The notes beneath the pieces are model-generated. The model ran no database searches, was not told where the DNA came from, and saw nothing but the letters and a program-made list of their open reading frames with translations. Source: Escherichia coli (GTDB lineage Bacteria > Pseudomonadota > Gammaproteobacteria > Enterobacterales > Enterobacteriaceae). From it: 64,000 bases of DNA. Shown here in pieces: positions 41,419 through 60,481 of this stretch (position 1 is the first letter of the stretch; each line of letters starts with the position of its first letter). The position numbers were made by a program, and so were the translations under genes. The stretch lies in assembly GCF_041248615.1 (NCBI RefSeq), contig NZ_CP158426.1; one strand, written 5' to 3'.

Positions 41419-41531
41419 GTGTTGATTATCCCTGCGGTGAATAATGTCGATGATGTCGAAATGACACGTCGACACGGCGACGAAATTCATCTTTAGCTTA
41501 AAAATCGCTTTAATAACAATTAATTAAAAGT

Positions 41532-42045: not shown

Positions 42046-42169
42046 GCTGAGGCTTTGCCCGTTTTGCAGGCGTTACGCCTGTTTGGGGATGGGCGTGTCG
42101 ATGAGTGTCGAAAATGACATTTCATCGGCATGTTTTCGTCAAAAATGACAATCACCTGAGGAATGCCTG

Positions 42170-49612: not shown

Positions 49613-49924
49613 ATGCACATCATTTCGAAAGCGCCATTTGAAGAGTGTGCGCGCAAATATCCTAACGACGCTCTGGCTCTACACTCATTGTATCGGGTTA
49701 TTAAGGAAACGGATTTTTCTACACCAGAAGAAATGCGAACGGCGTTTCCTAACCTCGACAATTTTAAATATCGCAACAAATGGTACGTTCTGGATGTCGG
49801 CGGGAACAATCTTAGGGTTATTGCCTACATAAACTTTGTTAATAAGCGGTTCTTTGTGAAGCACATAACGAATCACGCAGAGTATGACAAACTGACACGT
49901 TACTACAGAGAGAACAAAGAATGA
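49613..49924 (+). CDS. HigB-like type II toxin (RelE/ParE superfamily mRNA interferase)
   Basis: 103 aa; alignable by eye to K-12 HigB as I recall it (shared ...KYP...FPSLDNFKY...GGNELRVVA... pattern); AAGGAAG RBS. Confidence 0.8.
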   Translation: MHIISKAPFEECARKYPNDALALHSLYRVIKETDFSTPEEMRTAFPNLDNFKYRNKWYVLDVGGNNLRVIAYINFVNKRFFVKHITNHAEYDKLTRYYRENKE

Positions 49925-50340
49925 CTGCTAATGCTGCACGCGCTGTTAAAGCAACAAGAGAACTGGTCAATGCAGTCCCCTTTCTGGGAGGCAGTGACTC
50001 AGAAGATGATTATCGTGAAGCACTGGAACTGGTCGAATATTTGATTGAAGAAGATGACACCAATCCACTTATCGACTTTCTGGCGAGCCGCATTGCAGAA
50101 TATGAAAACAACAACGAAAAGTTTGCAGAGTTCGACAAAGCCGTTGCAGCAATGCCGGTTGGCGTGGCGTTACTTCGTACGCTGATTGATCAACATAATT
50201 TGACCTATGCGGATTTGAAGAACGAAATCGGCTCTAAATCTCTGGTCAGTCAGATTTTGTCTGGGCAACGATCCCTGACGATATCCCATATTAAGGCACT
50301 TTCAGCCCGATTTGGCGTTAAGCCGGAATGGTTTCTTTGA
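49921..50340 (+). CDS. HigA-like antitoxin (XRE-family HTH)
   Basis: 139 aa; 4-nt ATGA overlap with the toxin gene; resembles K-12 HigA as I recall it (AVPFLGG, GSKSLVSQILSGQRSLT). Confidence 0.8.
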   Translation: MTANAARAVKATRELVNAVPFLGGSDSEDDYREALELVEYLIEEDDTNPLIDFLASRIAEYENNNEKFAEFDKAVAAMPVGVALLRTLIDQHNLTYADLKNEIGSKSLVSQILSGQRSLTISHIKALSARFGVKPEWFL

Positions 50341-53309: not shown

Positions 53310-53565
53310 CGGATTTTATCCTGTTATCAGTAGGGTAGATGTAGTTGTTATCAGTCGACGTGACGGAAAAATGCCGATGCTGAAACGGAATTAGGAAACC
53401 GGTTTCACAAAATCATGAATAGTTGTCACTAAATAAGCAAGAGAGTTAATTGTTCATTTTTTATATTTGTGAAACCGGTCACCTGAATATTTTTCCCGCC
53501 GATTGCGCAAGGACAATCGGCAAACGGTGCAGTACACTGCGTTGATTGCGTGTAAAGGGATGAAA

Positions 53566-54579
53566 ATGATGACGACGATGCTGGAAGTGGCGAAGCGCGC
53601 CGGGGTTTCAAAAGCGACCGTTTCCCGCGTGCTTTCAGGTAATGGCTACGTCAGCCAGGAGACTAAAGATCGCGTGTTTCAGGCGGTAGAAGAGAGCGGT
53701 TACCGCCCAAACTTGCTGGCGCGCAATCTGTCGGCGAAGAGTACTCAGACGCTGGGGCTGGTCGTGACCAACACGCTTTACCACGGCATTTATTTTAGTG
53801 AATTACTCTTTCATGCCGCGCGAATGGCGGAAGAGAAAGGGCGACAGTTGCTATTGGCAGATGGTAAACACAGCGCCGAAGAAGAGCGCCAGGCGATTCA
53901 GTATCTGCTGGATTTGCGCTGCGACGCCATTATGATTTACCCGCGTTTTTTAAGCGTGGATGAGATTGATGACATCATTGACGCACACAGTCAGCCGATA
54001 ATGGTGCTTAATCGCCGCCTGCGCAAAAACAGCAGCCATAGCGTCTGGTGCGATCATAAACAGACCAGCTTTAACGCCGTGGCAGAGTTGATAAACGCCG
54101 GACATCAGGAGATTGCTTTCCTTACCGGCTCGATGGATTCTCCCACCAGCATTGAACGTCTTGCCGGGTATAAAGACGCGCTGGCGCAGCATAGTATTGC
54201 GCTCAATGAAAAACTTATCGCTAACGGTAAATGGACGCCCGCCAGCGGGGCCGAAGGGGTAGAAACGTTGCTCGAACGTGGGGCTAAATTTAGCGCGTTA
54301 GTTGCCAGTAACGACGATATGGCGATAGGTGCGATGAAAGCGTTACACGAGCGCGGCGTAGCGGTGCCAGAGCAGGTGTCAGTTATCGGATTCGATGATA
54401 TCGCTATTGCCCCCTATATCGTTCCGGCGCTCTCCAGCGTAAAAATTCCGGTGACTGAGATGATTCAGGAAATTATTGGACGGCTGATTTTTATGCTCGA
54501 TGGCGGGGATTTCTCACCGCCGAAAACCTTCAGCGGAAAATTGATCTGCCGCGACTCACTCATTGCCCTTTCGCGATAA
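53566..54579 (+). CDS. ascG: LacI-family repressor of the asc operon
   Basis: ORF 53503..54579 over-extended; start at MMTTMLEVAKRAGVSKATVSRVL (53566) with AAAGGGA RBS; 337 aa. Confidence 0.9.
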   Translation: MMTTMLEVAKRAGVSKATVSRVLSGNGYVSQETKDRVFQAVEESGYRPNLLARNLSAKSTQTLGLVVTNTLYHGIYFSELLFHAARMAEEKGRQLLLADGKHSAEEERQAIQYLLDLRCDAIMIYPRFLSVDEIDDIIDAHSQPIMVLNRRLRKNSSHSVWCDHKQTSFNAVAELINAGHQEIAFLTGSMDSPTSIERLAGYKDALAQHSIALNEKLIANGKWTPASGAEGVETLLERGAKFSALVASNDDMAIGAMKALHERGVAVPEQVSVIGFDDIAIAPYIVPALSSVKIPVTEMIQEIIGRLIFMLDGGDFSPPKTFSGKLICRDSLIALSR

Positions 54580-54592
54580 ACATTGTCATCAC

Positions 54593-54627
54593 ATGTCATC
54601 GTCACTAGTGTCGATGACATCGTTTTT
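54593..54627 (+). terminator. 28-bp near-perfect palindrome plus T-run after ascG (terminator and/or regulator site)
   Basis: ATGTCATCG-N10-CGATGACAT with internal palindrome CACTAGTG, followed by TTTTT; 14 nt after ascG stop, about 100 nt upstream of hydN. Confidence 0.45.
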
Positions 54628-54727
54628 CCTGCATTGCAGAATTTAATTTCTTTAAATAACAGTAAATTAAAAACTGGCATGATTTGTGAATGTATCGGCG
54701 CATTAACTGTCATTGCTGGAGAATTTG

Positions 54728-55255
54728 ATGAACCGTTTCATCATTGCTGACGCGAGTAAATGTATTGGTTGCCGTACCTGTGAAGTGGCGTGCGTGGTTT
54801 CTCATCAGGAGAATCAGGACTGTGCATCGCTGACCCCGGAAACTTTTTTACCGCGAATCCATGTCATTAAAGGTGTGAACATTTCTACGGCAACAGTCTG
54901 CCGTCAGTGTGAAGATGCACCGTGCGCTAACGTCTGCCCGAATGGTGCTATCAGCCGTGATAAAGGGTTTGTTCATGTGATGCAGGAACGTTGCATTGGT
55001 TGCAAAACCTGCGTTGTGGCTTGCCCGTATGGCGCGATGGAAGTGGTGGTACGTCCGGTGATTCGCAACAGCGGCGCGGGGCTGAATGTACGGGCTGACA
55101 AAGCCGAAGCCAATAAATGCGACCTCTGTAACCATCGTGAAGACGGCCCGGCGTGTATGGCGGCTTGCCCGACCCATGCGCTGATTTGTGTCGATCGTAA
55201 TAAACTTGAACAACTGAGCGCAGAAAAACGTCGCCGTACGGCGCTGATGTTCTAA
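54728..55255 (+). CDS. hydN: electron transport protein HydN (4Fe-4S ferredoxin-type)
   Basis: ORF 54713..55255; start at [22 protein letters not shown] (54728) with GGAG RBS; 175 aa. Confidence 0.92.
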
Positions 55256-60413: not shown

Positions 60414-60469
60414 GTCAAAATGACTATCAATCAAATGGTCGATATGACAATATCTATAGTCAAATTGAC
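60414..60469. promoter_or_regulatory. three NorR enhancer sites (GT-N7-AC)
   Basis: GTCAAAATGAC (60414-60424), GTCGATATGAC (60438-60448), GTCAAATTGAC (60459-60469). Confidence 0.7.
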
Positions 60470-60481
60470 AGTGAGGCAAAG

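Follow-up and report, generated by a model that had tools for sequence, protein, structure and literature searches.

The ascG-hydN intergenic region contains a single near-perfect palindrome

The window, that is, the whole stretch of 64,000 nt of Escherichia coli DNA that was analyzed, carries genes in the order hyp-hyc-asc-hydN/hypF-nor. RefSeq annotation of identical DNA places ascG and hydN on either side of a 28-bp palindrome, which reads ATGTCATCG-T-CACTAGTG-T-CGATGACAT and whose surroundings are summarized in Table 1. The sequence is exactly as an earlier note on this DNA had described it, with 13 of the 14 positions paired between two 14-nt arms, a single T.T mismatch (54602/54611), and an inner CACTAGTG that is a perfect palindrome by itself. 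Two of the distances given in that note required adjustment. A run of five T does follow the palindrome, but it is separated from the stem by the bases CG and is not adjacent to it, and the position described as about 100 nt upstream of hydN corresponds to a palindrome centre located 121 nt from the hydN ATG and approximately 94 nt from the predicted start site.

Table 1. Features of the ascG-hydN region, and NorR-type sites elsewhere in the window
Feature	Position	Strand or location	Remarks
ascG stop codon TAA	54577-54579	+	RefSeq annotation; palindrome starts 14 nt later
Upstream half-site-like element GTCATCA	54585-54591		Enterobacterial consensus GTCGWCA, from anchored alignment
28-bp palindrome	54593-54620		Identical in K-12 MG1655
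Palindrome segment ATGTCATCGT	54593-54602		
Palindrome segment CACTAGTG	54603-54610		
Palindrome segment TCGATGACAT	54611-54620		
Left arm TGTCATCGTCA (reverse complement TGACGATGACA)	54594-54604		Half-sites TGACGA and TGACA
Variable 4-bp centre	54605-54608		CTAG in E. coli; from alignment
Right arm TGTCGATGACA	54609-54619		Consensus TGWCGATGACA; T at 54611 makes the T.T mismatch
T-run TTTTT	54623-54627	+	Two bases (CG) after the palindrome; would be a terminator-like tail
IHF-like site TAACAGTAAATTA	54657-54669		WATCAANNNNTTR with 2 mismatches; between palindrome and promoter
sigma-54 promoter CTGGCATGATTTGTGAA	54674-54690	+	-24 GG at 54676-54677; non-canonical -12 GA at 54688-54689; predicted start near 54701
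hydN coding sequence	54728-55255	+	First gene of hydN-hypF; ATG at 54728
NorR-type sites GTCAAAATGACT, GTCGATATGACA, GTCAAATTGACA	60414-60470	norV-norR spacer	GTCA-N-TGAC type

No other 28-bp palindrome in the entire 64-kb window pairs at 12 or more of its 14 positions, and first-order Markov simulations give a chance expectation of 0.02 per window for palindromes with at least 13 of 14 pairs. K-12 MG1655 has the identical sequence over 54577-54637, a stretch running from the ascG stop codon past the palindrome and the T-run, and again over the sigma-54 promoter; it differs by three substitutions in the spacer between the T-run and the promoter. Window positions 54570-54640 correspond to about 2838195-2838260 in K-12 NC_000913.3. 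Of 5426 complete E. coli genomes, 5425 contain the palindrome, at a median of one place per genome; in the lineage of strain GN04171, which has A in place of T at 54602, it is perfect.

A pair of sigma-70-like hexamers (ATGACA-17 nt-CAGAAT, 54614-54642, 9 of 12 matches) overlaps the right arm. Because one such pair was found where 2.1 were expected by chance, it was dismissed as a promoter and not considered further.

hydN-hypF has a sigma-54 promoter with a non-canonical -12 element

The earlier note regarded CTGGCATGATTTGTGAA as only a partial match to a sigma-54 promoter and doubted its function. The first observation is correct, in that GA replaces the -12 GC, but the doubt is overturned by published binding data. 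CTGGCATGATTTGTGAA is the exact sequence of E. coli K-12 sigma-54 ChIP-seq site OS26, located 27 nt from hydN (PMC4591121), and the ascG-hydN spacer was recovered as a target of the RpoN holoenzyme by genomic SELEX (gSELEX) (PMC8743547). The Salmonella orthologue, TGGCACGATTCGTGTATA, from which the canonical -12 GC is also absent, was bound in ChIP-chip, and a promiscuous activator induced Salmonella hydN-hypF 13-fold (PMC3844500).

Comparison of 81 enterobacterial sequences showed a -12 element (window positions 54686-54690) of TGCA in 29, whereas the other 52, E. coli and Salmonella among them, have TGAA or TGTA; a non-canonical -12 is thus common at the hydN promoter. In annotation, CTGGCATGATTTGTGAA should be entered as a genuine sigma-54 promoter whose -12 GA is non-canonical. 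The start predicted from it places the centre of the palindrome at about -94.

The palindrome is conserved as a DNA sequence across Enterobacteriaceae

Eighty loci with close relatives of HydN were fetched, one per species across Enterobacteriaceae, and the 200 nt upstream of hydN were compared. The palindrome was present in 80 of the resulting 81 hydN upstream regions (79 of the 80 fetched loci, and the window), which cover Escherichia, Salmonella, Citrobacter, Klebsiella, Raoultella, Enterobacter, Kluyvera, Kosakonia, Lelliottia, Trabulsiella, Cedecea and other genera. This retention at an orthologous position, together with the single copy per genome and the expectation of 0.02, refutes the idea that the palindrome arose by chance or is a copy of a repeated or mobile REP-like element. 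That explanation, for which the palindromic shape speaks and nothing more, is extremely improbable; a comparison with Rfam likewise returned no family matching the palindrome.

The 80 sequences that contain the palindrome were aligned by anchoring on its centre. In this alignment the arms, TGTCATCGTCA and TGWCGATGACA, are nearly invariant at 1.4 to 2.0 bits per column, with 15 of the 22 columns over both arms, and 8 of the 11 in the left arm, showing no variation. The central 4 bp carry 0.6 to 1.1 bits per column and include such variants as TTCG, GATG, CAAC and TAAG, and one base past the right arm the information content drops to background, close to zero. On the other side, the GTCGWCA element that lies 2 bp upstream of the left arm (columns -22 to -16) carries 0.7 to 1.8 bits, compared with approximately 0.3 further upstream. 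The sole arm position that varies often is the W of the right arm, with A in 52 species and T in the other 28. Among 76 distinct sequences, the pair that is mismatched in E. coli takes the form T-A 51 times, T.T 22 times and A-T 3 times. Seven of the 10 core pairs never vary among these 76 sequences and therefore give no test of pairing.

The binding site of a dimeric DNA-binding protein would be predicted to combine an invariant sequence in the arms with tolerance of a mismatch and a centre that varies freely, a pattern unlike that of an RNA stem. What is kept among relatives is a dyad-symmetric, multi-unit site at the level of its sequence, as is expected of a sigma-54 enhancer. By this comparison, the palindrome is a conserved DNA site rather than an ordinary terminator.

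Features of an intrinsic terminator are present in Escherichia

The palindrome falls within the 3' untranslated part of ascG and can therefore fold as a hairpin when copied into RNA, and the earlier note proposed that it could terminate ascG transcription. In its full form, this explanation holds that the palindrome is mainly an intrinsic (Rho-independent) terminator of ascG, the hairpin and UUUUU of which release RNA polymerase and shield hydN-hypF from read-through. The geometry fits in Escherichia. The hairpin begins 14 nt past the ascG stop on the same strand, its outer stem of 9 bp contains 4 G-C pairs, and the stem is followed by CG and then five T, which gives UUUUU after a 2-nt spacer. 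In a 61-nt context the + strand RNA has a folding energy of -15.1 kcal/mol (z = -2.7, with none of 200 shuffles as good), but the hairpin is weak per nucleotide, at -12.5 kcal/mol over 28 nt, and is AU-rich. A d'Aubenton-Carafa-type discriminant for the palindrome is negative, at -48 with a strict tail and about -2 when the tail is taken from the T-run, and a consensus terminator scan makes no call at this position. On the discriminant, values above 0 are reached by only seven sites in the window, all of them resembling standard terminators, and the palindrome hairpin lies below them. The minus-strand hairpin was also considered as a terminator and was rejected, having no U-tract and a z of -1.3.

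The order ascG-palindrome-hydN is widespread, as would suit a terminator, but the T-run does not follow it. Within the 12 nt after the palindrome, every Escherichia locus apart from E. albertii has a T-run of at least 4, compared with only 8 of 71 loci from other genera, counted with or without an AscG-like gene; the run is absent in most of the genera that contain AscG, and it is present without ascG in E. coli L001 and L002 and in Salmonella. Retention of the upstream gene is thus not always accompanied by that of the hairpin and U-tract. Covariation of the bases flanking the arms would fit a base-paired stem (see below), whereas the arms themselves are kept as sequence and not just as pairs, with T.T tolerated in 22 of 76 distinct sequences. 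A fixed helical phase relative to the sigma-54 promoter, such as is described in the next section, would be meaningless for a terminator. In the 3'-end data sets given in the supplements of PMC7815308 and PMC12207403 there is no entry for ascG or hydN, and hence no ascG 3' end.

These data make it quite improbable that the palindrome is mainly the ascG terminator. The hairpin and T-run of Escherichia may terminate or stabilize some ascG transcripts in a secondary role, and what survives of the earlier terminator proposal is this fit in geometry; the negative discriminant, the unconserved T-run and the occurrence of the T-run without ascG do not agree with the remainder. A terminator role is not what keeps the palindrome in place.

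The palindrome is phased with the hydN promoter and persists without ascG

The distance from the centre of the palindrome to the -24 GG was either 58.5 to 61.5 bp or 68.5 to 71.5 bp, and never 62 to 68 bp, in 77 of the 77 loci where an automatic search locked onto the palindrome, a count that refers to loci and not to independent insertion or deletion events. The two spacing classes, with the empty gap between them, therefore differ by approximately one helical turn. The helical phase relative to the promoter is constrained, as is expected of an enhancer. In E. coli the centre lies 70 bp upstream of the -24 GG, within the roughly 70 to 150 bp considered an enhancer distance, and the palindromic core found upstream of the K-12 fdhF promoter lies at 79.5 bp when measured in the same way. 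In 52 of 81 species, the best match to the IHF consensus lies at the same position, 18 nt before TGGC, and is perfect in 13, has one mismatch in 18 and has two in 21. By this match, IHF may bind the IHF-like site of E. coli.

In most genera, an AscG-like gene on the same strand ends 12 to 43 nt before the palindrome. The AscG-like neighbour is absent and the palindrome is kept in Salmonella, E. albertii, Cedecea and others. Within E. coli, 727 of the 5425 complete genomes match the ascG-hydN region only partially. In two of these 727 that were examined, ascG, ascF and ascB have been replaced by another island, which carries a DUF4259 gene and HigB-like/HTH genes, and the palindrome is retained; homology resumes at 54574, a few bases before the palindrome, and E. 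albertii shows the same junction near 54574. By these comparisons, the palindrome belongs to hydN and not to ascG.

Within the window, the hycI-ascB interval (49613-50340) contains two overlapping open reading frames of 103 and 139 aa. They are equal in size to a HigB-family toxin and an HTH protein found at the corresponding place in strain FDAARGOS_1259, the likeness being one of size.

The arms share recognition units with enhancers of the formate regulon

Membership of hydN-hypF in the E. coli formate regulon is textbook knowledge. The upstream regions of hyc, hyp and fdhF are taken here to be the FhlA-bound enhancers reported by Schlensog 1994 and Leonhartsberger 2000. The window contains five copies of the 9-mer TGTCGATGA, which forms part of the right arm, where 0.64 would be expected, and three of the five lie upstream of FhlA-controlled promoters, namely, in the hyc enhancer (41445), in the hyp enhancer between hycA and hycB (42096), and at hydN (54609). 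The resemblance of the arms to the GTCGAAATGACA motif of the hyp/hyc control region, to which the earlier note had drawn attention, was borne out by an exact GTCGAAATGACA at 41455-41466 in the hypA-hycA control region and by the TGTCGATGA common to hyc, hyp and hydN. The core upstream of the K-12 fdhF promoter, CGTCAAAACTGACG, has the form CGTCA-N4-TGACG, with the same half-sites and spacing as the inner core of the hydN consensus. PMC3844500 and PMC11841067, both citing Maier et al. 1996, give hydN-hypF as FhlA dependent and as belonging to the formate regulon.

For seven other genera, the spacers between hypA and hycA and between hycA and hycB were retrieved via HycA homologues. Phylogenetic footprints of both the hyc and the hyp enhancers conserve TGWCGA and TGACA units. 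The hydN half-site 10-mer TGWCGATGAC was found six times in four of the seven loci (Enterobacter, Klebsiella, Pseudocitrobacter and Raoultella), always inside the hypA-hycA (hyc) enhancer, against approximately 0.08 expected. The hydN palindrome and the regions taken to be the hyc, hyp and fdhF enhancers have a recognition sequence in common, as is expected of FhlA sites.

We also observed that in Klebsiella and Raoultella the hyc enhancer contains both hydN-type arms in everted order, TGTCGATGAC-N13-TGTCATCGACA (L089, 1061-1094; L092, 1059-1092), where the E. coli hyc enhancer has TGTCGATGATGTCGAAATGACA. FhlA-type enhancers are therefore plastic from genus to genus in how their units are arranged.

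Published descriptions of the FhlA site do not recover the palindrome. A published weight matrix of 14 columns (PMC7658346) ranked the hyp enhancer (17.6 bits) and the hyc enhancer (16.1 bits) as the top two sites in the window, and scored the palindrome at 7.0 bits, rank 201. Across the orthologues the median best score was 7.4 bits, against a background 95th percentile of 9.6, and the best register coincided with the exact centre of the palindrome in 58 of the 73 loci scored. In our reading, the matrix misses the hydN site because the units are packed there without A-rich spacers. The FhlA consensus CATTTCGTACGAAATG, attributed to Leonhartsberger et al. 2000 in PMC4987338, had no match with three or fewer mismatches at the palindrome, nor at the real enhancers in the window; given the latter result, it is useless as a scanner. 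The low matrix score and the unmatched consensus argue against FhlA as the protein concerned. A further reservation is that the degenerate core pattern employed, YGTCR-N4-TGWCR, was derived after the sites had been seen. A full-text literature search with the palindrome sequence returned no relevant paper. The unit suggested by comparison, TGWCGA, often followed by TGACA, is likely to describe FhlA sites more sharply than either the matrix or the consensus, both of which miss the hydN site.

A low matrix score would also be expected if the palindrome were the enhancer or operator of a different regulator, such as the FhlA paralogue HyfR, the neighboring repressor AscG, or an as yet unnamed factor. 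An AscG-like gene adjoins the palindrome in most genera, but the palindrome persists without ascG, and AscG operators are LacI-type GAAACCGGT boxes (GGAAACCGGTTTCAC, TGTGAAACCGGTCAC) unrelated to it. CG-centred boxes of the GAAACCGGT type (TGAAACCGGTTTCA-like) sit instead in the ascG-ascF spacer (53394-53408 and 53468-53482), and the palindrome was rejected as an AscG operator. In the same window, NorR also uses GTCA-type inverted repeats, but with GT-N7-AC spacing versus GT-N8-AC at the palindrome. It is specifically in enhancers under FhlA control, moreover, that the half-site of the palindrome is found again. Binding by some regulator other than FhlA is thus very improbable.

Bases flanking the arms covary

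The two bases on the outer side of each arm covary, 54591-54592 with 54621-54622 (alignment columns 3-4 with 31-32). Both flank pairs are complementary in 40 of the 80 sequences, compared with 17.4 expected and a maximum of 29 in 2000 shuffles; because the shuffles ignore phylogeny, the strength of this signal is uncertain. At least seven different complementary dinucleotide combinations occur, and one species shows a compensatory change from T-A to C-G at the outermost pair of the arms. The genera in which the covariation is concentrated are Klebsiella, Raoultella, Enterobacter, Kluyvera and Lelliottia. Their hairpins reach -20 to -25 kcal/mol, and in Klebsiella and Enterobacter the longer stem comes without a T-run. 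Within the 80-sequence alignment the covariation is absent from Citrobacter and Salmonella.

A pure protein-binding site does not predict covariation of this kind, which is evidence against reading the palindrome as an enhancer and nothing else. It could stem from selection on a 3' hairpin that the upstream transcript forms as RNA, or from mutation by template switching, which perfects quasi-palindromes. If the former, the palindrome could be in dual use, acting as DNA as the FhlA enhancer of hydN and as RNA as a selected 3' hairpin of ascG-like transcripts, whether by terminating transcription, stopping an exonuclease or forming a processing end. We consider dual use unlikely; if true, it would explain both the covariation of the flanks in half of the species and the gain of the T-run in Escherichia. 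It is also a possibility that bound FhlA acts as a roadblock to read-through from ascG, so that formate couples the two transcription units. Covarying flanks, and an enhancer within a 3' untranslated region, pose a small question about elements that work as both DNA and RNA.

At the hycA-hycB spacer, the conserved FhlA-type enhancer (42094-42136) likewise forms an RNA hairpin, of -20.3 kcal/mol, followed by TTTT just past hycA, a situation that parallels the one at ascG and hydN.

A model for activation of hydN-hypF from the palindrome

The best explanation for these observations is that the palindrome is the enhancer (upstream activating sequence) of the known FhlA/sigma-54 promoter of hydN-hypF, to which we assign a probability of roughly 0.8. 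The earlier suggestion that the palindrome may be a regulatory site holds, in that it is conserved, helically phased, and built from a half-site common to the hyc and hyp enhancers and the fdhF upstream region. The site exists, is conserved, is phased with the promoter and shares its sequence with other FhlA-controlled enhancers. From that shared sequence we infer that the protein bound at the palindrome is FhlA, and IHF may participate at the hydN promoter.

In the proposed arrangement, each arm would hold a TGWCGA recognition unit and then a TGACA one; the arms would stand head to head around the 4-bp spacer, and a third, TCGWCA-like unit would lie 2 bp further upstream. Formate-activated FhlA would bind these units as dimers, and an oligomer would assemble approximately 94 bp upstream of the start. 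The AT-rich IHF-like site, at about -40, would aid bending of the DNA, such that the FhlA ATPase could contact sigma-54 RNA polymerase in the closed complex at CTGGCATGATTTGTGAA and drive formation of the open complex.

The palindrome should be annotated as an enhancer and not as a terminator. The locus is well studied, with a sigma-54 promoter that has been mapped several times. The finding has little weight as a discovery, and the practical gain lies in the annotation and in the picture of the FhlA recognition units.

Comparison with known systems

The palindrome resembles intrinsic terminators in forming a hairpin that is followed by a T-run shortly after a stop codon. Unlike them, it has an AU-rich stem, two bases before the T-run, a negative discriminant and a T-run that is not conserved, and its stem is kept as sequence rather than through compensatory change.

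The norVW system within the same window offers another parallel. The literature (PMC2831303) describes three NorR enhancer sites of norVW, with which the three NorR-type sites in the window (Table 1) agree, and describes them as bound by an enhancer-binding protein with a GAF domain. Both norVW and hydN have inverted GTCA/TGAC-type sites upstream of a sigma-54 promoter. They differ in spacing, which is N8 at hydN and N7 for NorR, and in the flanking bases, the regulator and the signal, which is nitric oxide for NorR.

There is also a likeness to the FhlA enhancers of hyc, hyp and fdhF, from which the hydN site is nevertheless distinguishable. It packs its units as GTCGA-TGACA, whereas the hyc and hyp enhancers have GTCGA-AA(A)-TGACA; it is an almost perfect palindrome of 26 to 28 bp with a low score on the published matrix; and it lies within the 3' untranslated region of a co-directional gene. 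As in those enhancers, however, it is made of TGWCGA and TGACA units and lies approximately 100 bp upstream of a sigma-54 promoter, with an IHF-like AT-rich site in between. It has TGTCGATGA in common with hyc and hyp, and CGTCA-N4-TGACG in common with the fdhF upstream region, and the operon that it precedes is reported to be dependent on both FhlA and formate.
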